This document shows, piece by piece, positions 30,394 to 57,448 of a DNA stretch of 64,000 nucleotides. The position numbers and the translations under genes are program-made. The notes under the pieces were generated by a model, which was not told the origin of the DNA, did not search any database, and saw nothing but the letters and a program-made list of their open reading frames with translations. Source of the stretch: Amphiscolops sp. MND2022 (Eukaryota); the NCBI GenBank assembly GCA_964187785.1, contig OZ076409.1, forward strand, positions 23,872,001-23,936,000. The letters are read 5' to 3'. The first letter of the stretch is position 1. Every line of letters begins with the position of its first letter.

Positions 30394-30999
30394 GTGAGTC
30401 TAGTTTATTGTTGTTTATTTAAAAGAAAAATAAGATTTATTCCAACTTCAGGAAAATTCTGCAGAAAAACGCGAAAAATTTTCTATAGAGGCTTAGCTGC
30501 ACTGCAAATGCTGCATTCCCAGTGTGAAAACTCTTGCAACTCTTGATAAGAATCTTGGATATTCCTGGGTTTCTTAGTAAGAGTCTTGCCAAGAATCTTA
30601 CCAAGAAATCCACGAATTTGCAAGATCTTGCAAGATCGTGCCAAGAAATTCAAGAGATGAACGAACAAAAGTGAACGAAAACAAACAAAAACCGACGCCA
30701 ACTGCAGCTTGATCAGTGTACCTATTATGCCGTAGCTTTCCGCGCTACCAACCAAGCTATCACATTTTGAAATTCAATACTTTGTGTTGTGCTATATCCA
30801 ATACTTCATAGAATGATTGTGTAGCTGGTCGTGCGAACCACAGCGAAGTACTTGTAAACAAAATTACTGGTTGTTTTACAACTTATTTATTCTCTTGACA
30901 CTCTTGATAAGACTCTTACCAAGAGTCCTATCAAGAATTTCAAGAGGTTTGTGTGAAGCAAGAATAAACAAGATCTTATCAAGACTTTCAAGAGTAAAC

Positions 31000-31268
31000 T
31001 GTACTGACCTACATTAATAACCAATAGTATTTAGATGTTTATAGAATGTTCTAGAATGTACATTTATTTGTTATTGAATGATTGTAAATCTCTACTCCTT
31101 CAGAGAGAGAAAACTAATAATCAGTATTCAGTTGACTTCCTTTTTGTTCTACTCCTAACACCTCGGAATAGTTGTAATAAAGTAAGCTAGCTAGCTTGTC
31201 TCTCAGCCGCTTTTAGTAGTTGCGTATAAGACCATCAAAAACAATAACCAACCATTAAAAGCAGCACA
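31000..31268 (+). repeat. 5' LTR of giant element
   Basis: TGTACTGACC...GCAGCACA; 2 substitutions versus the 3' LTR; contains AATAAA. Confidence 0.97.
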
Positions 31269-31271
31269 ATT

Positions 31272-31284
31272 TGGTGCGACTTGT
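31272..31284 (+). promoter_or_regulatory. Primer binding site (TGGTGCGACTTGT; primer tRNA not assigned)
   Basis: TGG located 3 nt after the LTR end; the first 7 nt fit tRNA-Gly-type 3' ends but the rest does not. Confidence 0.65.
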
Positions 31285-31507: not shown

Positions 31508-31840
31508 CTACCGGTTTATCACGTTTTCTAACACGTTGACACGGTTCTTCTTCCTGTTCTTCTAGCCATACCGGTTTATCACGTTTTCCATTACGTTGAA
31601 ACGGTTTCATTTCGGACTGATTTATCCATTGTGACACAGTTCTGTTTTTCTTCTTTTTCCAGACTGATTTATCCAAAGTGACACAGTTCTGTTCTCCATA
31701 CTGATTTATCACAGCTAATCCGGAAGCTTGTTGAAACAGTTCTCTGATGTTTGTCTGGTTTATCAAGGTTTTCTAACACCTTTGACACAGCAACGTTTGT
31801 CTGGTTTATCAAGGTTTTCTAACACCTTTGACACAGCAAC
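31508..31840. repeat. Degenerate repeat array in the leader (about 7 units with a G(G/A)TTTATC...TGACAC core; exact 46-bp duplication 31749-31794/31795-31840)
   Basis: Direct inspection. Confidence 0.8.
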
Positions 31841-33195
31841 TTTCTTCAATCCTGCTATCTTGAACGTCAGGTGGACTCCTGGTGTAATAGTTGACTGAGT
31901 GCATGTCCAACTCCGCTCACCTATAAGCACATACGTCTCAAGATCAACTTCGTGTTGGCAGAAAACCTGGATTTTCTACTTTTACGTTTCGGATCCCCTT
32001 TCTACAAAATTTCCTACAAAAAAATTTCAGAAATAGACTCTGAAAACATAAAAAAGGCAACCAAGACTAACTACCAAAAACAACCACGCACTATTCCCTT
32101 TCTTTCCTTATTGTCGACAAACAATACAAATAAATTCACAAAACTTAAATAATACAAATAACTTCAAAAATGTTCTCAATAACCAACAAAAATAACAATA
32201 ACAAATAAACTCAAACTTACCTCAAGTACTTCCAATAATAATAATTTTAACATAATCCTACAAAACAATTATTTTAACAAAATACAACATACAATTTTCA
32301 CAACTCTTTTGCTTTAACACTTAAAATAAGGCATGTAAATAACACAAACAAAGTAAAGTTAGTTTTCTACTTTCAGGCACCCACAATTCCTATCCCCTCC
32401 CGTAAGACTTAGCCAATCAGACAGCCTCACCAGCGTACTCTGATTCTAAGACTGACTAAAAACCTTAGTTAAGTGTAAACGTTTTCAAGGAGATTCGAGA
32501 GGACACCGAACTACGTTCGAATCTTCAAAATTCTCAGGAAGTAAAAGTAAAAGTAAAAGAAACAAAGATCAAATTTTGATCTTGATCAGTATTGATCAGA
32601 CTTTGGATAGTGGACGTTGATTGTTCAGAGTTCCACTCCTTTAGTCTTAAAACACACAACCCACTTAAAATTAAATCAACCTTAGTTTTTCTGGACGTGT
32701 CAGTAACCTTATGTTAGACACCTTAAAGTGATCCAGACTTGAAATAACATTTAGTTTCTGTTAGCAATCCTTTGAGATTGAATACAGATCCTACTGCACC
32801 CGCTTATTTCTTCTCTATCCTAAAATATTAACTTCTCAAATAACTTCAAATTACAATACAACTTATATGAACCCAAACCAAGAAATTTATCCTTTCAACT
32901 TTTACCTTCCACCAATTAGCTCACTTCAAAACCCTACACCAAACGATTTTGAAAGATTAATTGAACGATATCAACGATATTTCTTCTTTATCATAAGTCA
33001 ACAAAGAAATTACCCAAGAGCTCGAACTTAGAAAATCTTTATACAAGACATTTCAACGTCATAACCTTCACATTATAACATGTGGGAAAAGGTTACCACA
33101 GTAGTACTCATTACAACATACACGTTTTGTGTCTTATTTATAGTTTGTGTTCTTCTTGAAAAAATACCTACAGTGATAAGAGATAAACTTTAAAA

Positions 33196-36100
33196 ATGTC
33201 CTCAACGACAACCCCTCTACCTTTCCAAACTCCCGTCATTAAAAATGCAAAAGTTGTAAAATTAGAACTAAACCCATTTCTACATAACATTATTTCACAT
33301 TATACACAACCACTCCCATTTGAAAATGAACCACACACAATTGAAACAAACCCTCTTATTAGAGAACATTTGGACACATACCTTTTCTATATTAGATATA
33401 AAGTTTTAACAATCACCGAAGAATACCCAACTTTTCAAATATCCTTTCCTCAACAAAAACTTAACTCATCTCATATATACAGAAGAACAATAAACCCAAT
33501 AAACCTTCAAGTTCCTATTAAACAAGTTTTTCATGCTTTTCTAAATAATGTAAAAGACCACAATTTAGCACACGAAATTCCAAAATATAGTCCAAATGCA
33601 CTCGACGATCTTCAACGATGCATAGACAATTTCGACGTAGAAATTATTGAAACATTGGTTAATCCTGAAGATAACCCTCATCATTGGTTACAAGCTGATA
33701 TATTACGAATTCAAAATTTCATCTACCACTACCTCAAAGACCTAACATTAAATGACCAAACAAGTCCTCAGATCAAAGTAATATCTTTATTTCTCAGAAA
33801 AAATTTCAGATTTAATTATCAACTATTATGGTCTCAACAAGATCAATCTGCTTTTACAGAATTTCCAGATCATTTTACATTAGAAGAATGTTTACCATTC
33901 ATCATCAGTGAACAAAATGAACACCCTTACTTTCATAAACCACAATTAATTACAAAACAAACCTTAGATTACATACGTTTCGATCCTCTATTAATTACAG
34001 AAAATGATCTATTCCCAGATAATAGACCTTACCACTATCAACAAAATTCTCAAGATCAACAAAATTTACATTTTAACACTAACAATTCTACTGAAGATGA
34101 TAACACCGATCAGGAAAATGCAACCCAACAACAAAATCAACCTGAAAACTATAACGATAATGAGTTTACTACCCAAGAATCTACAATCTCAACATTTAAT
34201 CCATCACAAACAGGGACATCAACATCAGTACATACTCACTCCTTTAGAGTTCCCACTAGAGTTGTAAATCAAAGACAAAATATACATAGTCCTCAATCTC
34301 ATTTAGATACATCTCCAAACCGTAATATAACTTTTAACCTTCCACATACAGATGACATAAACGATGAAACCCATGATACATTACAATATAATACTATGAC
34401 TACATCTAGTGCTCAGAATACTTCTGCTAATGTTGCATCTCCAACAAGAACTACCTCTGATTCTACAAGATACATTACTCGACCTAGATATGATCCTCCA
34501 TCAATTCCCTCCGCCTTTCGCTCAAACAGATCGACCACTTCTAGTAACAATTTTAATGATAATCCTCAAACTTCCAACCGATATTACGATCCATTTAATT
34601 ATAACTTTTATCCTCCATCAAACACAACTACCAATACAAATATAAACCAAAACCACTCTCAAATTAATACAATTTCAACAACACAAAACCCCTTCATACA
34701 ATTATCAAATACCATTACGTCCCAGAATATATATTCTCAAAATCGAGGAACCTCGTGTACTTCCATTTCTTATTCTAATATTACACAGGATTCTCAAAGA
34801 AGACTTCATAATCCTCCACTTACACATATACCAACTGATCCTCTGTATCGAATGCATCCAAATCCAAATCTTAACCCTAATCCTAACCCATCCTCACCAA
34901 ATACAATCCAACATATACCTCCACCACTCACACAACAATTAGCTTCTTCACCCCAATATCTACCAATGCCACAAGATACCTTTATAAACATGTCCGCTTC
35001 AATACCAGAACCTATGAAACCTTTTGATGGTTTGGACCATTCTTACACCCCCGAAGAATATCTACAACAAGTCGAAGCAAGATTAACCTTCGCCATAGGT
35101 GAAGAACCTCAAAATAATCCTATAAAATACAAATCTTGGCATAATAGACGCATGGCTTACATACAATGTTCATTAATAGGAACAGCTCTCGATTGGTACA
35201 CTAACCTCCATATATCTTATAAACAACAATGGAATTCCTTTGTACAACTATTCAAAAAACAATTCTCATCTCAAAAAACTGCTTACTACGCTCAAGTAGA
35301 AGCTATGTCACTCATGAAAAAGGATAATGAAACAGTTCGCCACTTCGCCCTTAGAGTACAACAATTAGTTAAAAAGGGATGGTGTAATGAAAATGCAGCT
35401 ACCATAAATCTCAAAAATAATGAAATCTTTACAAAAGGGATACCAAAGAAGTTAAAAGATTTTGCCCATAAACGACAAGTTAAACTTGTATCAACATTAC
35501 TTGAACCTTCAATACCATTTCATACACTTGTTAGACATGTCGATTCAGAAGATATTGCTAATGAAAAAATCAGAACTAACGACTTAGCCCTAGAAATAAA
35601 CAAAGTATCGCTTGAAGAGGATACTAACAAAAAAGAATTTGAATACGAAGATCAGATAATGGTTACTCAAACTGGAGACCCAAATAACAAAAGCAAACCA
35701 GCGTATAGAAAATATTGTTCCTATTGTCATAAAAATAATCATAGTATTTCAAATTGTTATCAAAAACAACGTGATGACGAATACCAGAAATACAATAACC
35801 AAAGATCACGAACTCCTCAACAATCCTTTGTACAATATTTTCGCAGTAAACCTAATAATCCTCAGGAAAATCGAAATGAAAATACAAACTCTTATTCCTC
35901 AGATAATGATCGTAATAAATATAATCAAAACTACTATAATGATAGATACAGAAACAATGATAGATATCGTAGCAATAGTAGAGAATATTCGCAAAACAAC
36001 TATAGATCAAACTCTCGACAAAGATATTATAATCGATCCCGAAGTCCGTATAGATCTCGATTTGATAATTATTATCAAAGAAGAACTCCATCTAGATCTC

Positions 36101-37902
36101 CATATAGATCTCCATACAGAAATAACTCAAATTACAGATATAATTCTCGCTCAAGATACAGATCTCGTTCTCAATCACAAGAAAACTCCTTTAAACGATA
36201 TAATTATCCATATAGATCTCCATCAAGACCTAGAGATTTTAGATCAAGATCTAGAACACCCTCAAGAAACAGACAACAAAACAGAATAAATCAAGTAGAC
36301 GTTAAACCCCCAAAAGAAAATGATAGTACAAAATTTGAAATCCACACCTGTCAAATGACTGAAATAGCTAATACAATCACCCCTTATAGTTGGTTTTATC
36401 CACTATATATTCACGCCTCTGAAACAAATGACAACATATTACCTTCAAAATTAGAAATCTTATTCCTTTTAGATACTGGAGCTTCCATATCTGTTTTGAA
36501 TTTACCAACATTTCATGTAATTTCCAAACAATTAAACATCAATGTTCCAACTAACCTCCAAAACAAAAGAGCCAAAACTCTTACAGTTGCAAACCAAACT
36601 GAAGTACCAATAATACATTATATTTCGATGACCTGTTTCACTGAAGTAAATCACAAAACACGATCCTTCAATATCGAATTTGCAGTAGCAAATATCAAAT
36701 ACAACATTCTTGGAACACCCTTTTTCAAAAAGCACATCCAAAATATTGATTTTCAACAAGACATTATGACGTACACAGAACAACATCCAAAGCTTTCAAC
36801 AAAAACTACATTTTCTACATTTACAGAAAAGGATTATCCATATATTTCTTACATTTATACTATTAAATGTAAGGAACCAATTCACTTTAAACCAAGGTCA
36901 GGAAAAACCATACATTTTCCAATTAAAAACTATTCAAATCTACATTTTGAACTCGAAGATAATACGAAGTTCTACCCAACAAACCCATATACATATTTTT
37001 TACAAAAATTTAAAAATATCTTTTATTTCTTAGATATGATAGTCAATGAAAAAAGCAAAGACTCATGTGCAACTATAATTCAAAACTTTACATCTTACCC
37101 AGCTACATTACCACGAGGAATTATTGGATATATAGAAATACCTATTACGCAAACAACTCCTCCTCACTACAGAGTTAACGATGTAAATTCACTCATTCAC
37201 TCTGTAATACATGCTTATCACCCTGATACCACAACCCCGATTAAACAAATTCCATATACAGATATGAACTTATGTACTAGGGTAATACCACAATCCCTAT
37301 TAGAAATAAACAAGATAGAAATTAACGACAAAACACTTCAACTTCCTATACCTTCTGTTACTGGAAACCTTCGACCTTCAGATAAAATTCGAAAAGATTT
37401 CCCTCCACTACCCTATTCTACAGAAAACCAACCATTCATCAAGAAGTTCAATTTCGAATACTCAGATTTAACCGATACAGAATATGTAAATCTCTGCAAT
37501 ATTCTAATTAACAACCAAAATTGTTACGCCAAACATAAAAACGACGTAGGAAAAATTTCTACTCCTTTTCGAATTAGAATAAAAGATAATTGTAAACTTC
37601 ACGCACAAAGACCTTCTAAAGTACCTATCCAGTATAGAGATAGACTAAATAAACTTTTACTAGAACTCGAAAAATACAACATCATAAAACAAATTGGTTC
37701 GACAACAGATGCAAAACATACTATTGGAACAACATTTTTAAACCCTTTAATTATTATCCCAAAAGGAGACGCAATAAAAGTTGTTTTAGACGCAAGACAT
37801 CTAAACTCAAACACTAACCAAGAACTTGAATCTTGGCCTATTGAACCTTTAGCTCCTCAATTAGCTAGAGCAAATAAAAAAACAAATCAACTATTGATCT
37901 AA
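33196..37902 (+). CDS. gag-pol: Gag-protease-RT(N-terminal) polyprotein, 1568 aa
   Basis: Capsid-like LIGTALDWY...WNSFVQLFKKQF; CCHC knuckle CSYCHKNNHSISNC; RS-rich tract; protease LLDTGAS; RT start (IKVVLDARHLN). Ends at a 1-nt lesion in an A7 run. Confidence 0.92.
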   Translation: MSSTTTPLPFQTPVIKNAKVVKLELNPFLHNIISHYTQPLPFENEPHTIETNPLIREHLDTYLFYIRYKVLTITEEYPTFQISFPQQKLNSSHIYRRTINPINLQVPIKQVFHAFLNNVKDHNLAHEIPKYSPNALDDLQRCIDNFDVEIIETLVNPEDNPHHWLQADILRIQNFIYHYLKDLTLNDQTSPQIKVISLFLRKNFRFNYQLLWSQQDQSAFTEFPDHFTLEECLPFIISEQNEHPYFHKPQLITKQTLDYIRFDPLLITENDLFPDNRPYHYQQNSQDQQNLHFNTNNSTEDDNTDQENATQQQNQPENYNDNEFTTQESTISTFNPSQTGTSTSVHTHSFRVPTRVVNQRQNIHSPQSHLDTSPNRNITFNLPHTDDINDETHDTLQYNTMTTSSAQNTSANVASPTRTTSDSTRYITRPRYDPPSIPSAFRSNRSTTSSNNFNDNPQTSNRYYDPFNYNFYPPSNTTTNTNINQNHSQINTISTTQNPFIQLSNTITSQNIYSQNRGTSCTSISYSNITQDSQRRLHNPPLTHIPTDPLYRMHPNPNLNPNPNPSSPNTIQHIPPPLTQQLASSPQYLPMPQDTFINMSASIPEPMKPFDGLDHSYTPEEYLQQVEARLTFAIGEEPQNNPIKYKSWHNRRMAYIQCSLIGTALDWYTNLHISYKQQWNSFVQLFKKQFSSQKTAYYAQVEAMSLMKKDNETVRHFALRVQQLVKKGWCNENAATINLKNNEIFTKGIPKKLKDFAHKRQVKLVSTLLEPSIPFHTLVRHVDSEDIANEKIRTNDLALEINKVSLEEDTNKKEFEYEDQIMVTQTGDPNNKSKPAYRKYCSYCHKNNHSISNCYQKQRDDEYQKYNNQRSRTPQQSFVQYFRSKPNNPQENRNENTNSYSSDNDRNKYNQNYYNDRYRNNDRYRSNSREYSQNNYRSNSRQRYYNRSRSPYRSRFDNYYQRRTPSRSPYRSPYRNNSNYRYNSRSRYRSRSQSQENSFKRYNYPYRSPSRPRDFRSRSRTPSRNRQQNRINQVDVKPPKENDSTKFEIHTCQMTEIANTITPYSWFYPLYIHASETNDNILPSKLEILFLLDTGASISVLNLPTFHVISKQLNINVPTNLQNKRAKTLTVANQTEVPIIHYISMTCFTEVNHKTRSFNIEFAVANIKYNILGTPFFKKHIQNIDFQQDIMTYTEQHPKLSTKTTFSTFTEKDYPYISYIYTIKCKEPIHFKPRSGKTIHFPIKNYSNLHFELEDNTKFYPTNPYTYFLQKFKNIFYFLDMIVNEKSKDSCATIIQNFTSYPATLPRGIIGYIEIPITQTTPPHYRVNDVNSLIHSVIHAYHPDTTTPIKQIPYTDMNLCTRVIPQSLLEINKIEINDKTLQLPIPSVTGNLRPSDKIRKDFPPLPYSTENQPFIKKFNFEYSDLTDTEYVNLCNILINNQNCYAKHKNDVGKISTPFRIRIKDNCKLHAQRPSKVPIQYRDRLNKLLLELEKYNIIKQIGSTTDAKHTIGTTFLNPLIIIPKGDAIKVVLDARHLNSNTNQELESWPIEPLAPQLARANKKTNQLLI

Positions 37903-40900
37903 TGTATGCATATGCTCATACACCATTAGATGAAGAAACAATTAAACTTACAGGATTTTCATCCGGTGACAAATTATACGCCTTTATCCGTGGATTTTAC
38001 GGATTAAAAGGACTTCCAAACTTTTTCACAAAACAAATGTCAACTTTCTTTAGATCACTTATAGACAAACGTTCTGCGTTAGTTTATATAGATGATATTC
38101 TATTACTCGCAAATGAAAAACAAGAAATGTTTGAACTTATAAAAGAATTACATACAATAGCATCTCGAGAAAATCTCAAACTTGCACCTGAAAAATCGTT
38201 CTACATGTTACTCAAAGTAAAATTCCTTGGACATGAAATTGGTAACAACACAATTAAACCAATTCCATCCAAAATTGAAGCTATTGAAGGAATCCCATCA
38301 CCAAAAGAAAAGAAAGATGTTATGCAATTTCTTGGCAGTGATAACTTTTATTCAAAATTCATTGAAAAACTTCATATAAACCTTAAACCATTGTATACAT
38401 TACTACATGATGATGTTAAATTTCAATGGACACCTGAATTAGAAAAACTATTTCAAAATGTTAAAAACGCAATGACAGCAGACACTGAATTAACAATACC
38501 CAACACCACGCATCCATTTTTAATAACAGTAGATGCTTCGTTAGTAGGTTTAGGCGCAGTCTTATTCCAAATGAACGAAGAAAATAAGATGAAAGTAATC
38601 TCTTATAACTCCAGAATTCTCAATACACAAGAAAAAAAACTTTCAACTTTAGACAGAGAACTTCTTGCAATAGTTTACGCATTACAAATATATGAATTTT
38701 TGATCATTGGATCTCCTCATCCTATATATCTCTTCACAGATCACAAGCCTTTACTACATTGTTTCGCAAAGAAAGGAAATCTTAGTCCTAGATTCTATAG
38801 AGCACAAATGCAATTAACCAAATTTTCCAAATTAAAAATCATTCATACCCCTGGAAAAAACTTAACTGTAGCCGATATGCTTTCAAGAACCTTTACAAAA
38901 GAACAACTACAAGTACACCAATTACGACACAAACAATTACCACCTCAAATAGATTTCTCTATCATGAAAGATAATCAACTCAAACCAGTACATTATTTAG
39001 TAAAACATGAAGAAATAAAATATAATCAAAAGAATGATTGTCATCCTATCCTTGCTGACTACGGAGACGACCAATTCTCCATCCGTATAAATAACAAAGG
39101 AAAAGATATACATATAAAGCCTTTAGATTCCTTCTCTTTTCAATCTATTGTTCCATTCGAATCAAAATATAAAAAGCCTACAAAAAAACAAGCAAAATCT
39201 CTTTTACAACAATCGACAATTTTTAATGATACTGACATTCTTAGTGATGAAGATGAAATAACACCATCAAATAATATCCAACAACAAAACTCGAACATAG
39301 TAAAAGAATACACCCTTGCTATACAATATCCTACCAAATCTGACTATTGTACACAACAAGTTCCATTTTTTGATCCATCCTTTTTCAAATACAAAAAATA
39401 TTTTAATTACTTCTTCCTACCAGAAGATACACAAATAACCATTGAAACAATAAAAACTCAACAAAATCAAGATACTGTTTTACAAAAGGTTTACCAATGG
39501 ATACTTAATAATGAAAGACCCTTACAAAAAGACCCAACAATTGCAGCTAACTCTTTCTTATTAGTATATTACAAACTCTTCAACCAATTATATATTAATC
39601 ATGATACAAAAATTATTCACATAGATTATGCTAATCTTCACGATTCCAACCCGAATCAAAGAGACAAAATATGTCTACCATTTAAACTTTTCCACACAGC
39701 TGTTAACAAACTTCATGCTCATGGACATTCAGGAATAAAAATATCCATCAAAGCTTTCAACCAATTTTACTTCATACCGTACCTGAATAAATGGATGTCA
39801 ATATTCATCCATGATTGCATTGAATGCCAACAAAATAAACATATTAACCAAAAATTACAAACTGCATCTATACAAACCTTCTCAGAAAATGCTTCATATT
39901 TTAATTACCGAATATCAATGGATACAAAAGGACCTATAAACCCACCATCAAATCAAAATTCATACATTCACGTTATAGTAGACGCTTTTAGTCACTTTGT
40001 AGTAACAGTACCTATAAAACAAAATAATGCTCAAAACGCTGTTAACTCATTACTACATCATTGGATAACAAAATTTGGACCTCCTGTATACCTAGTTACC
40101 GACCGTGGAACAGAATATATTAATTCAGAATTTGCAAATCTTTGTACCACAATGGGAATTAGACATTCACCAAGAACTCCTTATGCACCATGGACAAATG
40201 GTTTAGTTGAAAATCAAAACAGAAATCTTGGAACTCATCTCAGACTTTTCTTACGTAACACTCCAGAAAATTGTTCAACTCAAGTCCATATGTATGCTTA
40301 TGCACATAATTCACAACCATTTTCTGAATTAAACTTATCTCCATATGAAATAGTATTCCATACTATACCCAGAATTCCAATCAACTTTGAACTCAATCTC
40401 CAAAGAGATACATATAGAAATTGTACTTCTCAATATTGTCAAGAATTACCACTTCATACACACTATGACAAATCAAATCTAAATCCTTTCTTTCATAAAA
40501 TTTTATCTAAACCAATTCCACAATGGATCTTAGCTACTGAAATTGCTATGATACAGATATACCATACGGTATATGAAAACACAAAAAGAAAGATTAATTC
40601 CTATGCTTATTTTAACAAAACATATCACAATCCAAGACCCTTAGATATTGGTACATTTGTACTAAAAAGAAATTTTCTTCATGTTCATTTTTCCGATAAA
40701 TTAAAACCTCTCAGAATTGGCCCATTCAAAATTATTAACAAACTCTCCGATATAACATATGAAATTGTTAATCAAGATGGTTATACATCGCACATACATA
40801 GAAATCATTTAATTCCTTACTATCCAAAAGAACCAGTTATTTTCCCTTTCATACAACAATATAACCCTCATTTATTTAATGACTGTCATTCAAATACAAA

Positions 40901-41231
40901 CGATCAAATAATTAACTCTGATGAAGACAAATTTACAGACGAAGAACAATTTCCTTCCACAACATTTAATAAAGAAACGGATATACCATCCACGATTGAC
41001 TTGCAACCAGAACCATTTAACCAATATTCTTCATTTCCATATAAACAAAAAGAACAAATTCCTCAAAATACCTCCCTGGATAACCAATCAGATATTCATG
41101 ATTATGATAATTTTATTAATCCCCGAAGACACTCCTATAATAGATACAATTTCCGCCCACAACCAAGAAAAGACTACCGACTCTTCCTTGGTGAAAAGGA
41201 TATAATTTCACTTTCTCAAAAATCCTGCTGA
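37902..41231 (+). CDS. pol: Pol continuation: RT (YIDD), RNase H, integrase (HHCC, DDE, GPF)
   Basis: VYIDDILL; TVDASLVGLGAVL...RELLAIVYAL; HAHGHSG...CIECQ; MDTKGP, TDRGTEY, NGLVENQN; IGPFKI. Lies in the -1 frame relative to ORF1. Confidence 0.95.
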   Translation: MYAYAHTPLDEETIKLTGFSSGDKLYAFIRGFYGLKGLPNFFTKQMSTFFRSLIDKRSALVYIDDILLLANEKQEMFELIKELHTIASRENLKLAPEKSFYMLLKVKFLGHEIGNNTIKPIPSKIEAIEGIPSPKEKKDVMQFLGSDNFYSKFIEKLHINLKPLYTLLHDDVKFQWTPELEKLFQNVKNAMTADTELTIPNTTHPFLITVDASLVGLGAVLFQMNEENKMKVISYNSRILNTQEKKLSTLDRELLAIVYALQIYEFLIIGSPHPIYLFTDHKPLLHCFAKKGNLSPRFYRAQMQLTKFSKLKIIHTPGKNLTVADMLSRTFTKEQLQVHQLRHKQLPPQIDFSIMKDNQLKPVHYLVKHEEIKYNQKNDCHPILADYGDDQFSIRINNKGKDIHIKPLDSFSFQSIVPFESKYKKPTKKQAKSLLQQSTIFNDTDILSDEDEITPSNNIQQQNSNIVKEYTLAIQYPTKSDYCTQQVPFFDPSFFKYKKYFNYFFLPEDTQITIETIKTQQNQDTVLQKVYQWILNNERPLQKDPTIAANSFLLVYYKLFNQLYINHDTKIIHIDYANLHDSNPNQRDKICLPFKLFHTAVNKLHAHGHSGIKISIKAFNQFYFIPYLNKWMSIFIHDCIECQQNKHINQKLQTASIQTFSENASYFNYRISMDTKGPINPPSNQNSYIHVIVDAFSHFVVTVPIKQNNAQNAVNSLLHHWITKFGPPVYLVTDRGTEYINSEFANLCTTMGIRHSPRTPYAPWTNGLVENQNRNLGTHLRLFLRNTPENCSTQVHMYAYAHNSQPFSELNLSPYEIVFHTIPRIPINFELNLQRDTYRNCTSQYCQELPLHTHYDKSNLNPFFHKILSKPIPQWILATEIAMIQIYHTVYENTKRKINSYAYFNKTYHNPRPLDIGTFVLKRNFLHVHFSDKLKPLRIGPFKIINKLSDITYEIVNQDGYTSHIHRNHLIPYYPKEPVIFPFIQQYNPHLFNDCHSNTNDQIINSDEDKFTDEEQFPSTTFNKETDIPSTIDLQPEPFNQYSSFPYKQKEQIPQNTSLDNQSDIHDYDNFINPRRHSYNRYNFRPQPRKDYRLFLGEKDIISLSQKSC

Positions 41232-41415
41232 AATACGGAATACAGAAAGAAATACACACAAAAAAAGTTTGAAAGAAAGAAAAAGTTTGAAGCTTAATGC
41301 GAAAATAAATGAAATATTTTTCACGAATGAGAATAAAAGAAAGAAATCCTAATTGATATAAAACTATAACTATTTTACAAGCTGAAACTAACTATCATAA
41401 CGCAACGATTTCAAA

Positions 41416-42872
41416 ATTGATAGACATATTCACTCACCATCATCAACTACAAATAACTCTTCTTCTAGTTCAACACATTCACTCCAAAGATTACCTGAAT
41501 ATACAGCATATTTAAACTCAGATACAGACATACTGGATTCCTCATCCTCAAATCCCAGTCCATCCGCTCCATATACTCCTGATAGAGTACCAACAACACC
41601 CACTAATACACCTATATCCCAAACTCAACCACAAATATAAACAACTCAATCACAACCTATTTCACGAAATCTAACTTTTTTAGAAACAAATTCACCACTT
41701 TCTGACTCTAATGATGAAACACCTACAATATCAAATACACAAGATACTTCAGATATTTTGAATAGACCTCCTCTTCCACCGATTACTACCACTCGTTCTA
41801 TTCATATCCCTGATCCTAGCTCAGTCCTACAATACATAAATTCTTGTCCACACAAAGTACCAACTGCAACGAAAACAAAAAGAAAAACTCCTTTACCTAC
41901 ATTATCACAAAATCTTGATTTACCATCATCAAGTAATATCCCAATAACATTTTTACCAGAACCTTCATTAAAATCACCAACGAAAAAATCACAACAATAC
42001 CCAACTCCTTCACCATCGGTACTAAGTTCCTTCACATTTTCTCAAATATATCCCAAGCTTGAATTACAACGTGTACATTCAACAACTACCTCTTCATTAA
42101 CAGATTTATATCATAAAGATAAAGACTCTGACTCAACTGCTAGTACTAGAGTACCAAGACATAATTATAACCTTCGATCTCAACCACAAAGAGATTCTCA
42201 AGAATTACAATCCTTAACTAGTTCAAGTACAAACTCAAGACTACTTCGACAACACGCCCAACCCAGATTGGACACTTCTTCTCTTTCCTCATCTCAGCCC
42301 ACTATACCATATTCTCTATCACTACCATTTCAAATCACATCAGGATTTGAAACAGCCTCTCTTCTTTCTGAAGAGCCAGCAACTATATCAGATAGCGCAG
42401 CTAATTTTTCACGAGTTTACTCACCTAGTTCAATAGCATCAAACTCCTCTATACAATTACCTGAATTTTTTTTAGAAGAATTCTCAAGACCTCCATCGCC
42501 AAATCCTCACGAATATCCTATTCGTGTTAACTCAAAAATTGTTCGCACGCTTAACGAAGATCCTCGATACACGGTATTACCTGCAAGATTTATAAACAAT
42601 AGTTCACTCTCAACTCAAAAAAAAAACAAAGAGAAATACGAAGATTACAAGAACAACAACTCACATTAAAATTTGAAGTAGAAGTCACATTCAACTCGTT
42701 AGGACCTCATCCATTCTCTCTTTCAACAAGAGTAGCACATAAAACAACCCCATCACCATTCATTGTTACCTCCATTTCCTACCTTTGTGACGCAGATTTA
42801 CCTGAGATTAGAACAGGACATATAAACTTTTTTAATCCCTACTCAGGACTCAATTATAGATCAATATTTTAA
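41416..42872 (+). pseudogene. Accessory ORF3 (~485 aa reconstructed): Ser/Thr/Pro-rich N-part with PSAP and YNLR motifs plus ~120-aa globular C-part
   Basis: The 41758-42669 frame extends back to an ATT in start context (tcaaaATTg) with one TAA at 41638. A frameshift in the A-run at ~42620 continues QREIRRLQ...NYRSIF* to 42872, 2 nt before the env ATG. Confidence 0.7.
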
Positions 42873-42874
42873 CC

Positions 42875-45456
42875 ATGAACCAAATCACCTTTACCTTTCA
42901 TTTAATATATATAATACAAGTTGTTAAATACACGTATATAATAAATATAGTTCACTCTTTAGTTCACCCTTCAACTGTTCCCAAAGTTGACACCACCAAT
43001 TCCGAAAATCATATTTCAGACCAAGATCCTAACATTTTAAACTTAATGGTATCTCATTATGATTGTGCAAAACAAAATAACTTAAGACAATTCAGTTTAT
43101 TAAATGTAGAACCATGTAAACAAGCACCCTCAGATATACAACACACAAAAACCCAAGCAACAGTTTACGTTAGAGCAAAAGCCAAAAGAATAAAAGCCTT
43201 TAAATGTGAAGCATATATAAAGACTGAGAAAGTCTGGTGTTCACAAACATTCACATCTAGTAGACGATATGATCGTTTACAATGGGGACAAAACACATTA
43301 GAACTTCCAAAAATATTGGACCCTATTGAATGCAAAAATATGATCAGATATTTAAACGCGACTGATAGCGAAGAATTAAACAACTACAATATACAAAGCT
43401 CTTTCTCATTGTTCGACAATAGTAATTATCAAAACACAATTGAACGAATTCAGACACCATTTAGAGTAAAAAAATTAAATACATGGCATATTGGAACCTT
43501 CGTATTTGACGAAAATTATCCTGAATGGATAGTTAATGTTACACAAAATACATACTCTAGATGTCGATCAGACCGCGAACATTTAATTACCCGACAAAGT
43601 TGGAAACTTAGAATTGTTAACACCGCAATAGATTATGACGATAAAAACAATCAATTAATACATGACGGACACATATTACCATGTTATCATTCAGACGGAT
43701 TTTGTAAACCATCGACCAAAACTCCATATACATTAACACGGTTTGATGAAAAATTTTGCCTCATATTTCAACTTCAAGAATTCATTGGTAGAATGACACG
43801 AATCAAAGATAGATATTGGATAGAAACCGATACCTTCATTGAAACTTCAAACATCACACAAAAACTTCAAACCGAAGGAATACAAGGAAGAATATACCCT
43901 AATATAAAAACACCACAATCAAAAGTAAGCAACCCAAGCCTTTCTCGATTTGAAATATACCCAATTGCACAAACCTTCTGTGGAAAACCTGAACCATTAT
44001 TTTCAACACAATAAGATGACATCTTTGTTACGTACTTAGATGGTTTTGATATGAACACAGGATTACCAAAACCACACTCAATAATTGACCAAACAATTAG
44101 TGGAAATATAAAATATGATGATTCAAACAAAAGGTATATATTCCCTGCATTGAATATATCAAACAATTTCGCCACTTTAGACTATGATGCCCACATTAAT
44201 ACAAAGATTGATTTCACAATAAATCATGTATTTAAATCCATGACAGTACAAGAACTAAACACTCTTCATACAATATGTGAACTAGAAAGAACTCAACTGT
44301 TAACAATACTAGCAATGTCAGTTAAAAATCCCCAATTAGCCGGTTTTCTTTTAACTGGAAATCGTAGTAACTTTCTCTACGTTGAAGGATCTACAGCATG
44401 GCTGTATGATTGCCCTTATTTTATATCACCACTATACAAGGCAGATAAATGCTTTGATAGAATTCCTATACACTACAGAGAAACGATAATGTATGTTGAC
44501 CCAATAACAAGACAAACTTTTAACAACGCAACACCAATTGAATGTGGAAATAACCCACAAAATATAATAGAATTAGATCCAGATTCCAACGACGGAGATT
44601 TTTATGTGTTAACACCAGAACCACTCAAACGAGAAGCACCACAAATGTTTAAACCTACCCAAATTAAAACAACAATCACTCCTAATACATTTACCGCCCA
44701 AGATGCCGGTATATACTCAAATGCAGAATTAGATCAATTCTGGAATAGAGTATTATTTGCTAAACATTCAGACACAACTCTCCAATTACTTGGAAAATCA
44801 TTAAGCTATGATTTCATTTCAATGCATAATGAAAAACACTCATACTCAGGACATAATCCCTATAATCATTTAAGGATTGGAGTACATGACCACTTGTTAA
44901 ATCTTTTACCACTTTTTAACCCTGACTGGTTCAGTCAAGCATTCATTAATTTCTTTGGATACCCATGTTATGTTTTAACCCAATGTGGAATTTATTTTTC
45001 AACATTCCTTTTCATTAGAGAAGCTTTAACATTTTTACTCAAATTCTACAGAACAATTAGCATAAAATATAATCTCCAAAGCAACATTTCCATTTTGAGT
45101 TCAATAGCCCATGGATTTTTTAATATAGTTACATCGGAAATGGTAACCGATTTAAATAATACAGGAAAACAAAAACGGATATATACTAAACACAAAATTA
45201 CAACAAGTGAAAATGATAATATCCTATTACCGGAAAAAGAATTAAACAATAAACGAAGACAAGACACTCTGATACTGACTCCCCTTATTTACCTCCTAAA
45301 TATTCCAGTAAGAACTCAACATTTCAATATCCGCAAAAGACACTCCCAACTAATGTAAACGATATTAATTCTCAGGACTATGACCCAATAATGTCAAATG
45401 TAATAGCTGTACCGGAAAGTCCTGCTAAAGTCTTTATAAAATTCAATCCCTCCTAG
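42875..45456 (+). pseudogene. env: Envelope glycoprotein, class III fusion protein-like (herpes gB / chuvirus G type)
   Basis: Hydrophobic N-terminus; YDC...FSLLNVEPC, C-x10-C; ICELERTQLLTILAMSVKNPQLAGFLLTG...GSTAWLYDC; C-terminal TM at ~44942-45040. ORFs 42875-44014 and 44051-45358 are one frame broken by a single TAA; a tail frameshift near 45260 leads to the stop at 45456. Confidence 0.85.
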
Positions 45457-45876
45457 CTGAAAAGCAATAACAAAAAAAAACAAATTAACCTCAAGAAAAG
45501 TTCACAAAATTATCAACCACATTCTTCTCAGTTTCAACTTTCATTCACACCCAAATTCTCACTCGGACCGGTCTCTCCTTTTCTACTCAACTCAACTCTC
45601 AACCAGAAGACTTCAACTGCTGGATTTTCAGTCCATCTAAACAACCGAAATCACAGAAGTTTATATTCCTGGAATAGATGCCACTGTGATTGTTGATGTT
45701 TTCAACCCATCATTGACCCAGTATTCCCATATTGTAAGTACAATTTAAACTTTAATTTTAACAAACAATTTAATGGATAGAAAAGACATAACAAAATTTT
45801 TCCTTAGTATTAGAAATAATGTAATCAAATGTTATAATTATTATTTTAGCTCTACAAAAACACGCAAGTTTAAATA

Positions 45877-47155
45877 ATGGAATCCTTGCCCGAAATTCTA
45901 ATCCCTCTGAATTGCTTGCAACCCCTTTGAATATAACTATTCAACAAAATGTTAACGAAGACAATAACTCTTCCTCCAACTCTCAAGACCCTATAGAAAA
46001 TATCCCTATTGAACAAGTAGATCATGTTAACACAAGATCTCAAAAATAAAAGTACCCAGATATAACCGCAGATAAAACTTTTATGGAATCTGGCGCTTGC
46101 CCTCCTTTCATAAAACCAATTAAACAAGATGAAGATAGAGATTGTGCTTTAGTTCCTATTCTCTCGTCGAAACAATTCACATTTCAATCTCAGTTAACTT
46201 CGTTATACATGATTCCAACAAAATACAAATTCATCATCAGAGAATTTAAAAATGATTATCATACATCAATTGCTTCAAAATTGATTACCCCATATGATTG
46301 GTGGTTAAACAATAAAGTGAAAATTTTCTCACTTCAATACAACTTCCTCAGACCATCTCCGTATGATCTTCGAACAGAAGAAAATGATGCAAATTTTTTG
46401 CCATATCAAATCAAAAAGGCCCACCATATGACTTATCAAAAGTTCCTTCAATATAAAGAGCCCGATAATTATATATTCTCGACTCCAAATATACATCGCC
46501 ATTCACTTTCAACTCAGAATATTTAATAGATCATACCAAAACAAAAGGAAAACTTAGAAATTATGACCCGCTGAAACAAAGTTTTCTCTTCCTTCCAAAT
46601 GATAACCCAAAAAGACCAATCATTGTTCCACAAGAATACCTCATTCTAAATGACGATTCGTTACTACAAGAAGATATACCTCAACATATATCTGATCCTC
46701 TTCCTCCACTTCAACAAATAGCCTCTCAACCATTGGGAGACTGTGAAAAGTCTTATTTCCACGCAATGATCAAAAAGGGATATTCAAATAATGAATTAAT
46801 TTTCATTATTTCCCACCTGCTTTCACTTCTTACAAATGGAAATCACAAAGAATATAAAAAGACAAAACAAGAATCGCCTAAGAAAACCAAAAATGATATT
46901 CCTCAACCACAAAGTTTTCGCCCAACAGATGAATTACAGAAATATACAGAAATTCTGAATATCATAAAACCGTATCATCATCCAAACCGAGATATTCTTA
47001 TAACAATCGCTGAAATCGTAAATACCCTTGAACAAGCTCGAAGCATAATACAAAATATCGTATTTGATACGACAAGAATTAGCCAATCAGCTTTGTGCAT
47101 TCGCACATCCTTAGACGAATTCAACTACACTATTGAACAAATGCATCGATCTTAA
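45877..47155 (+). pseudogene. Accessory ORF5 (~425 aa reconstructed), unknown function
   Basis: ATG at 45877, then fragments 46083-46526 and 46733-47155, joined through two frameshifts and one stop; same A/C-rich codon bias as gag-pol. Confidence 0.55.
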
Positions 47156-47676
47156 CTGCTAATTATGGGATAATAGCTTTAAAGTTGTTAACACTTATCA
47201 CTTAATCTCTTAACAACCTGTCAAAATTAATTGAATCTACACGCATATGCCTGCTATGCATGATTCTAATACATGCTTGATATTAAAATACACTTTTAAA
47301 ATGAAATAACATAAAAATTTCAATCACGACATAAAAATTTTCAACGAAATTCTTCAATTGCTCCTCCTTTTAATGGACCGATTTCAACAAATAAGTACTT
47401 ATATGAAAGATATTTAAATACCCTTCAAAAGACTTTCAAAATACAACAACTTAATTCTTAAAATTAAAAAGTTATAACATCACAAAATTCAATAAAAAAA
47501 TGTCAACTACGAAATTCTATTTTCAAAGGAACTTTATTGTAAACAAACTAATCTATTTTAGGTGAATATCGTCACAACTGCTTCTTCAGCATTCCTTCCT
47601 CCTCTCAGGTCACCCATTCAAGAAGAATTCCGAAGTATCTTCTACAGCTTTCAACGAAATTTTCTCATTCTTCAAT

Positions 47677-48153
47677 ATGACAACTATCCACTCTGGCGAC
47701 ATTGACTGCCCGATAGCTCCTTTTCTTTCAATCTCTTCAGCTCGATTGCGATCCTTGATCCTGAAAAAGCATTTAACGACATTAAATGCGCAGCTTCGAA
47801 CAGAAAAAAAGGCAGACCCACATCTTACAAGGATGATATTGCTTAATATGTTCCAAATATTCCAAATAACAAGAATAAATTTCGACCAATGTCTCCATAT
47901 TCATAAACATCCTGACACTTATTTAACTCGAAAGGATGCCACTACCCAAACAGGACATACCACCATCAAACCCAAGCGTTTAATACGAACTCTATCCAAT
48001 AGAATGCGTTCCGAAATGGAAAAACAACGTCTAAATTCGTATTGGCCCTCAGATGACAATGATGACACTGACGAAGACCTTCAAAAAGATCCCCCAGAAG
48101 CACTTATAGATGATAATTACCCACACAAAACATATACTTACGTTTCCTTCTAA
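47677..48153 (+). CDS. Accessory ORF6, 158 aa, unknown function
   Basis: Intact ATG-to-stop ORF inside the provirus, downstream of a branch/acceptor-like ctaatctattttag at 47548-47561. Confidence 0.45.
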   Translation: MTTIHSGDIDCPIAPFLSISSARLRSLILKKHLTTLNAQLRTEKKADPHLTRMILLNMFQIFQITRINFDQCLHIHKHPDTYLTRKDATTQTGHTTIKPKRLIRTLSNRMRSEMEKQRLNSYWPSDDNDDTDEDLQKDPPEALIDDNYPHKTYTYVSF

Positions 48154-49188
48154 TATCAACAGACGCCACCAACAGCACCCGTCTACTCCCATCTTCGAAT
48201 TCCACATCTTCAACGAGCAACAGATCAGCACCCATCTTCAACTTCACCGCCGCCCAACAGTTGCCCACCTTCATTCATCTGCTGGCCCTTCTTCTTCCAT
48301 CTTCCAATCGTCCATCGTCACCCACATGCTCAGCCAAAGATGATCGATGAATAATAATAAAGAAAACTCAAAGAAAAACATTGTGCATGATAACATTTCG
48401 AAAAAGTTTCAAACTCATCTAATACGTAGAATTCAAACTCTCATCTAAATTATTCATTATGTAGTTATTATTTCAAATTTCATCCCCACCCACATTTATT
48501 TGCCCAAAAATTTTTATTCACACCTGTACCGATATTTATTTGCTTTATTTTTAAAGAATAATTAGTAATAAGTATTATTTTTCGGTGCTATCCTACCCAA
48601 CAAAAAATTCACAATTATTGTCAACAAATCTTTTCAAATTTCAACAAAACCAGCTCCAAATCAGATCAAGCACATTGTTCAGATCAAATTCGAATAATGA
48701 CAGACCCAAGTTCTCAATGTTTTCAACATTTGTTACATAACAAACCCGCCAAAGTTAATTACAACCTGAAATCTTTTCAAACGTATTTCACGTTCGAAAA
48801 AAATTTTTTCTCAACAATATTATTTCTTTGACTCTTTGACCTCTAACTCCTATGATGTTTGCTCACGTTTGTTCAATGCGAAGTTCATTCAAAACTTCAA
48901 CAGAAGCATAAAATTGAGCATCTACCAGTTCAAAAAACAAGCCGACGAAAGCATAGTGAAAAAGAACACTTTGACGCTTTTGAACTGTAGTCGCACCTAC
49001 GAGGTGTCAATCAAAATTTTGACAAATTCGAGGTACACCAATGAGTCGAACTTACACCACTTTTAACGAGACTTATGCCAATCATCCATCAAATGAAAAA
49101 TGTTAACTAGCTGAAACGCTAAGAACATTTAAACAAAAAATTTTTCTTCATTTCAATTAATGATGCTACTTTAAAATTTTCTTTTATT

Positions 49189-49204
49189 TAAAAACCGGGA
49201 TGGA
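49189..49204 (+). promoter_or_regulatory. Polypurine tract
   Basis: AAAAACCGGGATGGA immediately before the 3' LTR. Confidence 0.6.
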
Positions 49205-49473
49205 TGTACTGACCTACATTAATAACCAATAGTATTTAGATGTTTATAGAATGTTCTAGAATGTACATTTATTTGTTATTGAATGATTGTAAATCTCTAC
49301 TCCTTCAGAGAGAGAAAACTAATAATCAGTATTCAGTTGACTTCCTTTTTGTTCTACTCCTAACACCTCGGAATAGTTGTAATAAAGTAAGCTAGCTAGC
49401 CTGTCTCTCAACCGCTTTTAGTAGTTGCGTATAAGACCATCAAAAACAATAACCAACCATTAAAAGCAGCACA
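49205..49473 (+). repeat. 3' LTR of giant element
   Basis: 267/269 identical to the 5' LTR; followed by TSD AAAC. Confidence 0.97.
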
Positions 49474-49863
49474 AAACGGGAATATGTAAGAATATGCAAG
49501 ATCTTGGCAAGAGTTCCAAGAGTTTTTACACTGGGTTATCATTTAATCAGCATGTGATAATCTTTGGTTTTAAAATAACGCCAACTCGAAAGTAGCTACC
49601 GGCTTGAGAGTATGATTTTTGAAACAGACATCTGTTTTTCGTTTTGTTCAGTTAGACTGAGAATCTTCAGCAAGGTATACTATTTAAAATATATCTAGTG
49701 AGCTTGCCGTACTTATGTACCATCGACCTTTGTATCTCTGGTCATTTTCCGCCCTCACAATTTCTATTGTGTAGAAGGAGGAAAATCATCATCTGTGTTT
49801 TTTCCCAAATTCCGCCAAGAATCCATTTGTGATATATCGATTAATGATATATATTCTATTCAA

Positions 49864-50069: not shown

Positions 50070-50296
50070 ATCCCGACAAACCAACCCTCACAAATACTTT
50101 CTTGAACAACACAATCATAGAGCTGAAATGGACCCTGGAATATGGCTCTGCCGATGAGTACACTGTAACCTTTGAACCACCCCTGGAAGATTCAACTCAT
50201 GGAACAATCGGGTCCACCAAGGAAACAGGATTCGTCACCACTTCGCCTGAAGCTGTCTTCAGCAACTTGACAAACCATGCTGTCTATATTATAAAG
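50070..50296 (+). CDS. FN3-repeat TM protein exon
   Basis: (Y)PDKPTL...IELKWTLEYGSADEYTVTF...FSNLTNHAVYIIK; ttttatcag| acceptor, phase 1/0. Confidence 0.85.
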
Positions 50297-50952
50297 GTTT
50301 ACTTTCACATGAAATTGAAAATTTTCATGCAATTTACACGCAAGCATTCATTTTTAGTAAGCCAATTATTTCATCAGTTTCTGTTTGTACAACAAAAGGA
50401 CCAACTCACCAAAAATGTTACTTTATACCAAACACAAAGTAAAGTCGTTCGGGCAGTAAATTGTAATGGCTCTTCTCCAAAAGGAGACCTCAGATACTTT
50501 CTGCAAAGTTGAAACAAAATACGGCGCAATAAAAACCTTTTTCTTCAATAAAGTCATCCTCATAAAAACACCACATCTTCAAAACTGCATTCATGTAAAA
50601 CAGAAAAAGATCCAAACAAACATAAAACAGAAATGAATTCTTGGAACAAAATTGAATTGTCCAGGGTACGTTCAAATCTCTCTGAACGTTTTTCATTGTC
50701 GTTAGGCCGTCTATGCCAGGATTTGTGAGATGGCTAATTAGGACTGGTCGATGACTGATAAAACCATGACCTTATCATATTGACCAGTTATCAGTCTTTT
50801 GGAGTCCTTTGCAGTCCTTGATGTCAGATTTTTGTTAACAGCTGTGGCGCAATAAGACTAGGCGCTTATTGACTTCCATGGCCACTACAAATCACTCGTT
50901 AATAGCATTTCTGCAAGTTTGTAAGTTCTCATGGAAAACTGTTCGTTTTCAG

Positions 50953-55502: not shown

Positions 55503-56035
55503 TTAGTCGGCGCCTTTTCCCTTAAGGAAAAAAGCCCGACTCTTACAGTGAGTAGTTTTTTTTGTTTTTTTTTGTGACAATCTTACTCTGAGTGGTCCAC
55601 TTTTCTTACAATTTGTTCATATTTCATATTCGTTCATCTTCCATCTTCGACCCAGCCGGAGAGCGTGGGTTCGATTCTCGCACTAAACTATAAATTTTTT
55701 AATGCTTCCAAAAGTACAGGTGAGACCAAAGGGTCCCCCCTTTGGTTTTTTTTCGGCACTATGCGACTTTTTCCGAAAATTTTCGAAATTTATCAAAGGG
55801 TACCCCCTTGCATTTTTTTGATGTTTTCGGTTTGTAGAAAACGTTGAATGGGCCTGAATGGCCTCTTTTTGAGTTTTTCGGCATTGTGCGACTTAAAAAT
55901 ACTTTTTTCGAAAAAAAAATCAAAAATAAATTTTTTGAAAAAAAAATAATTTTTTCCAAATTTTTCCAATAGTTGTTCCTTGAATATTTTTGAGCCTAAG
56001 ATTTGGCGCCGACTTGGGACGTTCCCGTCTTGTTT
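55503..56035 (+). mobile_element. HINE/DINE-1-like Helentron non-autonomous element (best copy)
   Basis: 5' TT-AGTCGGCGCC with nearby inverted CCCGACT; 3' GGCGCCGACT plus stem-loop GGGACGTTCCC plus TTGTTT; internal tRNA B-box-like GGTTCGATTC. Confidence 0.75.
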
Positions 56036-57448
56036 GTAATTTACAAAATGACAAAATTTAGTTTGCATTAGAATGATTGTGCAATTGGTGAGGTATCAGC
56101 TGCATTATTAAAGCCGGCAAATTTTCAGGGCTTCGAAATGCCGCTATGGCTAATAAATTCAATTGAAAGTGGAAAGTTAAATTATTGAAACTTTCCATAA
56201 ATTTTCCAAAATACTTGATGACGTGCTTGGCAACTTCCTTGGTTGGAACTGCTTGAACTTTTTACAAGTTTTTGGAGGTTACCAAGCTACTTTTTCATGA
56301 TTTTATAAAATTCTCAAGGAAACCTCAATGCATTAAAACTTCACTGATGCAATTTAAACTTATCAAGTTGCCTACAAGATGCATTCTAAATTTGGCTGCA
56401 ATTCTGAGCCGCGAAGTTTTGCAAGTTTCATAAAGACGCCGTTCTAATTTTGAAAGCAGCTGAGACCTTCGTCAATTTTAACGCGGTTTCAATGCAAATA
56501 ATCTTCAGTTGCATTATAAGTTTCAAAGTAGCGTCAAATTCAGCGTGCAGTTTGACTAACGGTGTTTACATAAGGTACTTACTTGAGAAACTTACGCGTG
56601 AAAACAAAATGATCGCGGTGGTGAAGAAGTGGAAATGTTTTCAGTTTTAACTCAAATAGTGAAGGCTGCATGGTAATCCTACAAAATGTTTCCATGCAGG
56701 ATTCCTGATTTTTCCATGTTTTATAAAAAACAGTTTGCCGGCATTTTTTGACGGTGCCTGTAAAACTTCGCGGCAACTTCGACCAGGGTTACTGATACAT
56801 GAAAAGATTTATACTGTTTCAACTTGGGAAAAAGCTAAGATCAGGTGAAATATCATCAATGTGTTCATTGTCCTTCTATTGAAATTGAACCATAAAATCA
56901 GAATGGTATGCAACGGGCCATTACCGCTCACTTTTGTACTTTTTTAAATTGAGAAAGGTTTTAAATTGTATTATCTGTAACATTGAAAGATCTGTAGAAA
57001 ATGGCTCATTTTTCAGTTATTTGATGTGGCAAAAAAAGACTCTAGAAGTTTCGCAACAGGCCCGTGCTATCCTTAGTCGAGACTGCTGGAACTTTTTACA
57101 TGCTGCAGGCTTGCATGGAGGATCATTTTTCATAGAGCCTAGAAAATTCAGTCATCTTCCGGATGTAATTTTTTGTAGAAATACACTGCCGTTTGCTGTG
57201 TTGAAATTAAAATGGTTAACATTTCCCACTTCGTTATCGACATGATCACATTGTATTCACACTTTGATTTCTCAACTACTCTGCTACAATCACCGCTTCT
57301 CAAATAGCACGCTGAGTATGAACGTTTCCGTGAGAATTCTAGAAAATCACAATAAAAGTTGGTTGCAACTTCAAGGAATATGCAAAAAGTTCAAGGAATT
57401 TCAACAAAGGATGTCTATAGACAAGTTCAGTTCATTTTTTTCTTTCAG

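Follow-up and report, generated by a model that had tools for sequence, protein, structure and literature searches.

A recently inserted 18.5-kb Ty3/gypsy element in a likely acoel genome carries a stop-interrupted env predicted to encode a class III fusogen, and a conserved methionine-less gene beside it

The 64-kb window (the whole 64,000-nucleotide stretch of DNA analysed here) contains an envelope-like reading frame on its forward strand, which raises the questions of what class of membrane fusogen the frame encodes, what kind of element carries it, and how such a protein would be expressed and used. The env frame (42875..45358) is 827 codons long and is interrupted by a single in-frame TAA (44012-44014), which was replaced by X for searches and folding. 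A first-pass annotation of this DNA had placed the gene at 42875..45456 with a TAA at 44012; its start and its stop codon hold, but its end does not, as the env frame itself stops at 45358. Position 45456 closes a different frame, which bears the cytoplasmic tail in many sister copies; the present copy shifts near 45260. The remaining sequence features named in that annotation were recovered with one correction. The N terminus is signal-like and weakly hydrophobic (Kyte-Doolittle peak 1.45, residues 8-26), the ectodomain is cysteine rich (14 cysteines), a hydrophobic segment at residues 704-724 forms the putative C-terminal transmembrane anchor, and ICELERTQLLTILAMSVKNP (residues 467-486) and LYDC (residues 510-513) are both present; the motif reported as YDC-x8-SL-x2-V-x2-C is found with YDC at residues 62-64, its spacer being nine residues rather than eight. 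Hydropathy peaks at both ends outline a signal-ectodomain-transmembrane protein, the two segments being only moderately hydrophobic here (1.45 and 1.46) and stronger in sister families. The same 14 ectodomain cysteines recur in seven of seven env families (26-95% mutual identity) and are aligned in eight, a conserved disulfide framework. A furin-type R-x-K/R-R site was absent from all seven envs, and the furin site plus fusion peptide of class I envelopes was not found in this one.

Four lines of evidence place the env product among the class III fusogens rather than the F-type or retroviral envelopes, as the first-pass annotation had proposed: i) the sole Pfam family matched is PF24664, Monjiviricetes_fusion (E 7.9e-25; score 87 bits, cut-off 27), with no match to an F-type env family; ii) the AlphaFold2 model of the ectodomain (117 aligned sequences; mean pLDDT 76.8, pTM 0.62) combines long beta strands with a central helix of 45 residues (pLDDT ~89-96) that includes the ICELERTQ stretch; iii) Foldseek, run on the model of the stop-repaired protein as that annotation had suggested, gave herpes gB in all 35 matches listed from the PDB (best E 3e-12, TM ~0.3) and chu-like virus G as the best match in BFVD (E 3e-27, TM 0.42-0.52, 12-14% identity); and iv) VIA, an independent aligner, placed gB or rhabdovirus G at all of ranks 1-10 and thogotovirus GP at 12-13, with class I chains far lower (Z 3.4-3.7). 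The top VIA Z of 8.6 (rmsd 3.7 over 156 residues) lies slightly above the 7-8 that is the usual best for unrelated models. By domain, Z was 8.6 for gB domain IV, 8.3-8.5 for full gB, 6.9 for rabies G PHD-FD and 5.2 for gB domain II; global TM-scores to solved gB structures are low (0.22-0.33, rmsd at least 15 A). The predicted model follows the class III domain order of beta-rich fusion and PH-like domains, long central helix and crown. Its predicted long beta strands with loops align to the fusion domains, and the loop residues are poorly conserved across the eight envs. Herpes gB has a core motif, which the first-pass annotation had quoted; the link to gB drawn here runs through the predicted fold, because PDB searches with the env sequence and with an env profile returned no match. 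On these models and matches, a class III fold for the env product is close to certain. With the chuvirus/Monjiviricetes G proteins and herpes gB it shares the PF24664 match and the predicted fold at 9-14% identity; unlike them, it is encoded by a reverse-transcribing element, and no gH/gL-like partner was recognised.

The carrier is a Ty3/gypsy LTR element of 18,474 bp (~18.5 kb) at 31000-49473, a many-copy endogenous retrovirus with its features on the forward strand. A 4-bp target-site duplication, AAAC, flanks it (30996..30999 on the left, 49474-49477 on the right), and its 269-nt LTRs, TG...CA in form (5' LTR 31000..31268, 3' LTR 49205..49473), differ at two positions; the insertion of this copy is recent. 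The primer-binding-site-like TGGTGCGAC (31272..31281) is identical across all eight env families examined, and a purine-rich tract (49190..49204) stands upstream of the 3' LTR. The gag-pol region (33196..41231) encodes Retrotrans_gag, a CCHC knuckle, a DTG protease, RT, RNase H and integrase; the LTRs, target-site duplication, primer-binding site and gag followed by PR-RT-RH-IN are those of a Ty3/gypsy element, which agrees with the Gypsy-type carrier named in the first-pass annotation. No BEL/Pao Pfam domain was found within the element, Rfam gave no match on it, and no tRNA was found in the 64-kb window. Three further conserved genes that the earlier annotation had overlooked flank env: ORF2 (41533..42872) before it, and ORF4 (45877..47155, a 431-509-codon frame) and ORF5 (47566..48153, 158-308 codons) after it, the last two of no known family. 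With Ty3/gypsy pol, gag and a gB-type env between LTRs, the element falls under the operational definition of a gB-type errantivirus; a definition by uninterrupted gag, pol and env does not admit the copy at 31000-49473, which is broken in gag-pol, ORF2, env and ORF4. Its gag-pol, a single frame in sister families, shifts frame inside RT near 37880, its ORF2 has a stop near 41640 and a frame change near 42620, and it is unable to make a full Env.

The 1.9-kb 5' leader (31269-33195) contains short tandem and dispersed repeats of 37-46 nt (31509..31840) and is ATG-poor (8 observed against 18-25 expected), which fits scanning to the gag start. Over the RS-rich part of gag runs an overlapping 209-codon frame (35660-36289, forward strand) with no Pfam match; overlapping frames of 202-246 codons occur in the same part of gag in three other giant families and may follow from composition.

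Five other places in the genome bounded by the same LTR are 97-98.5% identical to this copy and have the same layout, the fifth minus its last 751 bases. A search with the C-terminal half of env yielded 94 scored matches, 93-100% identical, among 10,121 first-look candidates, a figure that is not a copy number. Among 30 fetched env loci, 11 are uninterrupted over at least 820 codons, and the stop occurs in one, the copy at 31000-49473. Programmed readthrough of the env TAA was rejected because the stop is found in only that one locus of the 30. Pooled pN/pS among the uninterrupted env copies is 0.22, the pooling having left out pairs of unequal length or below 90% identity, which removed one out-of-register copy. 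By these measures the family is young and its env maintained, with sister copies under purifying selection.

Four families, with envs 52-62% identical to the one described here and lengths of 17.7-18.9 kb, carry ORF2 in the pol-env gap and ORF4 and ORF5 after env. Between the two closest of them, dN/dS rises from 0.07 in integrase through 0.10 in env and 0.11 in ORF4 to 0.16 in ORF2, whose C-domain has 0.08; these values indicate purifying selection on env, ORF2 and ORF4. Nothing in Pfam scored above cut-off for ORF2, ORF4 or ORF5 of the four families. ORF4 is conserved among them at 31-40% identity to this copy's family; ORF5 is weakly conserved (19-23% between families; pN 0.26 against pS 0.82 in the two closest). 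In a sample of 54 stretches of 6 kb from 13 large contigs, the four giant families made up 3.8% of bases (95% interval 0-9.4) at 90% identity or more and 8.9% (2.4-16.7) at 65% or more. Dominance of the genome by this copy's own family was ruled out, its share at 90% or more being 0.1% of sampled bases.

ORF2 is a conserved gene without methionine: the four family references hold no Met in 1,780 codons, against 14 in 1,385 codons of five control frames. We regard it as very probably a real protein. Where its translation would begin is suggested by its leucine codons. CTG is a rare Leu codon in this frame: three families have a single one among their 39-60 Leu codons, and the fourth has two. 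The first CTG always stands in the context A-x-x-CTG-GAT, A occupying position -3 and G position +4, in all four families (41533 in this copy, the likely CUG start). From CTG to stop the frame measures 410-446 codons, and amino-acid conservation begins at the CTG; the open frame upstream of it varies between copies (460-489 and 453-520 codons). The motif was present in 31 of the 35 loci covering the site, the four misses being older, decayed copies. Because the families are related, their agreement does not amount to four independent tests. No stable hairpin was found 3' of the CUG (-1.6 to -6.8 kcal/mol). A frameshift or readthrough from pol into ORF2 was rejected because 65-325 nt, without overlap, separate the pol stop from the ORF2 frame.

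The same region could be read otherwise, with the class III env unchanged: ORF2 would be an internal exon that splicing joins to an AUG further upstream, env would be translated from its own spliced or internal-promoter mRNA, and CTGGAT would be a DNA or RNA signal. In Tor elements the env RNA arises through splicing or from an internal promoter (PMC4402516), AG dinucleotides and pyrimidine-rich tracts occur 25-95 nt past the CTG, and the CTG motif is near-palindromic in two families. The AGs, however, fall at non-homologous places and phases, the CTG is in frame with its flanking A and G in every family, conservation sets in at that very codon while the frame before it varies, and an internal exon would leave the lack of Met unexplained. 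We consider the spliced exon unlikely, though the strongest of the alternatives, and initiation of ORF2 at the CUG probable.

An ORF2 initiated at the CUG would let other ribosomes reach env by leaky scanning. Past the CTG, codon shuffles predict 28 out-of-frame ATGs and nine are present, two of them env starts; the deficit is statistically significant in just two of the four families (P 0.011, 0.001, 0.094 and 0.056), and 2-3 short upstream ORFs persist in three families. In the window copy the env start is preceded by 1,161 nt free of ATG, a longer run than anywhere else in the element. Rice tungro bacilliform virus (RTBV) offers a precedent, its AUU-started ORF I being passed by leaky scanning to downstream ORFs through an AUG-free stretch (PMC5902531). 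We put leaky scanning past ORF2 to env at about an even chance. The position of the env start itself varies: it lies inside the end of ORF2 in two families, giving Env an N-terminal extension before the signal segment, and 2 and ~96 nt past the ORF2 stop in the other two (loci L061-L066, L068, L071).

What might ORF2 do? Its N-terminal part is rich in S, T and P, and its C-terminal domain of ~125 aa is beta-rich with no recognised fold. Three short motifs stand at aligned places, PSAP in three of the four families and [LI]YPxL and YNLR in all four. Short motifs arise easily in S/T/P-rich sequence, and the single-family chance of PSAP and LYPxL is 0.03-0.08; YNLR, which sits in an Arg-rich patch, is the least likely by chance (P at most 0.01 per family). 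A PPxY motif occurs in the env tail of all four families, and within this copy's own family in only 12 of 24 readable tails. Late-domain motifs that recruit ESCRT are a precedent for PSAP, YPxL and PPxY, and the nucleosome-binding peptide of foamy virus Gag, which holds YNLRPR, is one for a YNLR tether (further background in PMC6451197, PMC8402826 and PMC12125541). The C-domain model (pLDDT 73, pTM 0.50) is a small beta sheet whose best VIA Z of 3.1 shows neither a new fold nor the lack of a relative; BFVD gave no match to it at E<=0.001, and in the ESM Atlas neither this domain nor the core of ORF4 had a usable match. A search with the C-part of ORF2 found 230 homologues, the best 120 of which are ENA proteins 73-99% identical. 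Three further ENA env proteins proved to be members of families already counted. Among the data sets listed as containing this sequence none was of RNA; three runs of unknown kind have only short, mostly low-depth pieces, uninformative on expression, habitat or transfer.

The motifs can be weighed in two ways. ORF2 might be a nuclear regulatory or chromatin-tethering accessory, with PSAP and YPxL incidental and budding left to Gag or the env tail; the low chance probability of YNLR, its Arg-rich setting and its match to the foamy Gag peptide would fit this, as would the family that lacks PSAP and, more tentatively, the ORF2 domain model, which matched no viral matrix fold. Against it, LYPxL and PSAP are conserved islands amid divergent sequence, and Gag-PR has no P[ST]AP, the only PPxY and YPxnL there falling past the protease. 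A purely nuclear ORF2 appears improbable to us; a budding role is nearly an even call, leaning slightly to the negative.

Our preferred reading as a whole, which we hold with somewhat more belief than doubt, is that the stop-interrupted env belongs to a recently inserted Ty3/gypsy element whose predicted class III fusogen would let particles enter other host cells, with expression and release as follows. A full-length RNA would give Gag-Pol. A shorter RNA, beginning just past pol as in Tor3b/4b, would be scanned by ribosomes, some of which would initiate at the conserved weak CUG to make ORF2, while the rest would cross an AUG-poor stretch of ~1.2-1.4 kb to the env start. ORF2 (through PSAP and LYPxL) and the env tail (through PPxY) would recruit ESCRT for budding, a task of Gag late domains in retroviruses, and YNLR would tether ORF2 to nucleosomes, as in foamy Gag. 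Env would then fuse the particle with a target cell, probably of the germ line or a stem cell. Cell-to-cell spread by way of env is plausible.

Where did this env come from? The genome holds at least eight families with a gB-type env, and trees of RT (190 columns) and of env split them into the same two clades (support 99/100 and 100/100); identity between the clades is 40-47% in RT and 25-29% in env. A library search found 2,046 protein clusters related to env at E<=0.001, and the env tree, a quick one of 35 rows, is not of a kind from which a donor can be named. According to Chary & Hayashi (eLife, PMC13524379), Ty3/gypsy elements of many animal phyla have a gB-type env, for which these authors propose an ancient origin. 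The first-pass annotation had proposed an independent capture; as a new event this is unsupported, since the pairing is widespread in that published account and the RT and env trees are congruent. A recent, independent acquisition of the glycoprotein from an RNA virus is accordingly very improbable: its best structural matches are chu-like RNA virus glycoproteins, and Anakin is such a capture in BEL/Pao elements (PMC7642597), but identity to those viral proteins is only 12-14%, the two clades recur in both trees, the primer-binding site is common to all eight families and the pairing is reported as widespread and ancient (PMC13524379).

The second clade has an env of the same type, and no ORF2 homologue was detected in it, so ORF2 is not required to keep env. 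Members of this sister clade (L043-L054, L058-L060) measure 17.9-19.5 kb, with LTRs of ~1.4-2.1 kb and a pol-env interval of ~4 kb that contains tandem repeats in three families. Downstream of env, before the 3' LTR, they encode a TRAF-type MATH-domain ORF on the forward strand (L044:7694-8464, L047:7891-8523, L059:7711-8733; E 8e-22 to 4e-10 in Pfam; TRAF1 as the best match in the PDB, E 4e-13), apparently an immune-signalling domain captured from a host. Family F821 is a more compact relative of 12.2 kb, in which env is followed by an ORF of 524 codons; the ORF4 profile showed no similarity to that ORF.

The host was placed by the mitochondrial COX1 of the assembly, whose nearest named relatives are Symsagittifera roscoffensis (an acoel, 75%) and Baltalimania ylvae (73%), which we take to be an acoel as well; the next named animals stand at 65%. 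The host is likely an acoel because these two are nearest, provided that the COX1 contig is the host's own.

How does the element compare with those already described? It resembles the "ancient errantiviruses" of Chary & Hayashi in its LTRs, its gag-pol-env order, its Ty3/gypsy pol, a gB-type ectodomain with conserved cysteines, and a multicopy, recent expansion; it differs in a likely acoel host and in three extra conserved genes, one of them without Met (PMC13524379). Its gag-to-env span of 12.2 kb and its pol-env gap of 1.6 kb also exceed the main prefilter of that study (10 kb and a 1-kb gap; PMC13524379). Anakin of mosquitoes shares a chuvirus-like glycoprotein inside an LTR element, there of BEL/Pao and here of Ty3/gypsy type (PMC7642597). 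Burro, a giant planarian Gypsy element, is likewise large, with env homology and accessory domains, and its MATH_TRAF_C matches the domain of the sister clade in the acoel genome; it exceeds 30 kb and has its env in a polyprotein between gag and pol, whereas env here is a separate ORF after pol and ORF2 (PMC6431247). RTBV is a plant pararetrovirus with an AUU start, and its likeness lies in the non-AUG first ORF and leaky scanning (PMC5902531). Tor elements obtain env RNA from an internal promoter past pol, Tor4b sits beside elements with F-type env, and no Met-less ORF is described in the passages covered (PMC4402516). Among BEL/Pao elements, Tas of nematodes also has a chuvirus- or gB-like glycoprotein.

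The window holds further observations apart from the large element. An env-less Ty3/gypsy element of 5.2 kb lies on the reverse strand at 14827-20070, with short LTRs 95-99% alike and an RT 31% identical to that of the large element. A BEL/Pao-type gag fragment is found at 61564-62358 on the forward strand (DUF1759, E 8e-11). Two probable host exons, each just under the Pfam cut-off, are a homeodomain end at 5725-6264 on the reverse strand (E 9e-5) and a fibronectin type III match at ~50090-50305 on the forward strand (E 4e-4); the large element may be located within or next to a host gene. A dispersed repeat several hundred bases long, in both orientations and 72-94% alike, recurs at 1334-1498, 8507-8948, 26681-26754, 29705-30050 and 55565-56048, and positions 22172-22455 form a 284-bp perfect hairpin with 142-nt arms, 99% complementary, and no spacer.

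A gB-type env in Ty3/gypsy elements is already known; what sets this element apart is the likely new host group, the size and, above all, the conserved, probably CUG-started, Met-less gene with budding motifs. A likely acoel host, a size of ~18 kb and three extra genes were not found in print. Acoel terms gave no match in the main text of PMC13524379 (two terms) or its seven supplements (six terms), and the titles and abstract starts searched, mostly of open-access papers, yielded neither an env-bearing element in acoels nor a CUG-started gene upstream of a retrotransposon env; Repbase and the supplements of acoel genome papers may have more to say. Such elements and genes can escape filters on size and gap length and gene callers that rely on ATG.

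The env adds a likely new phylum-level host, Xenacoelomorpha, to the published gB-type Ty3/gypsy pattern, a record with a bearing on the pre-Cambrian origin proposed for gB-type env in these elements (PMC13524379). Chary & Hayashi name budding and cell entry of gB-type errantiviruses as open questions (PMC13524379); the conserved gene for a putative late-domain protein next to env, and the mRNA predicted to combine a CUG start with leaky scanning, are testable handles on them, in a group of animals that serves stem-cell and regeneration work. More tentatively, and on balance with more doubt than belief, acoels may host a complex retrovirus-like Ty3/gypsy lineage that would bud by means of a separate late-domain protein of unrecognised fold, CUG-started on the mRNA of a class III fusogen so as to set the ratio of the two, and that would hold further accessory genes, among them the putatively captured TRAF domain of the sister clade. 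If true, this lineage would be an invertebrate counterpart of the complex retroviruses, with a rhabdovirus-like module of matrix followed by glycoprotein.
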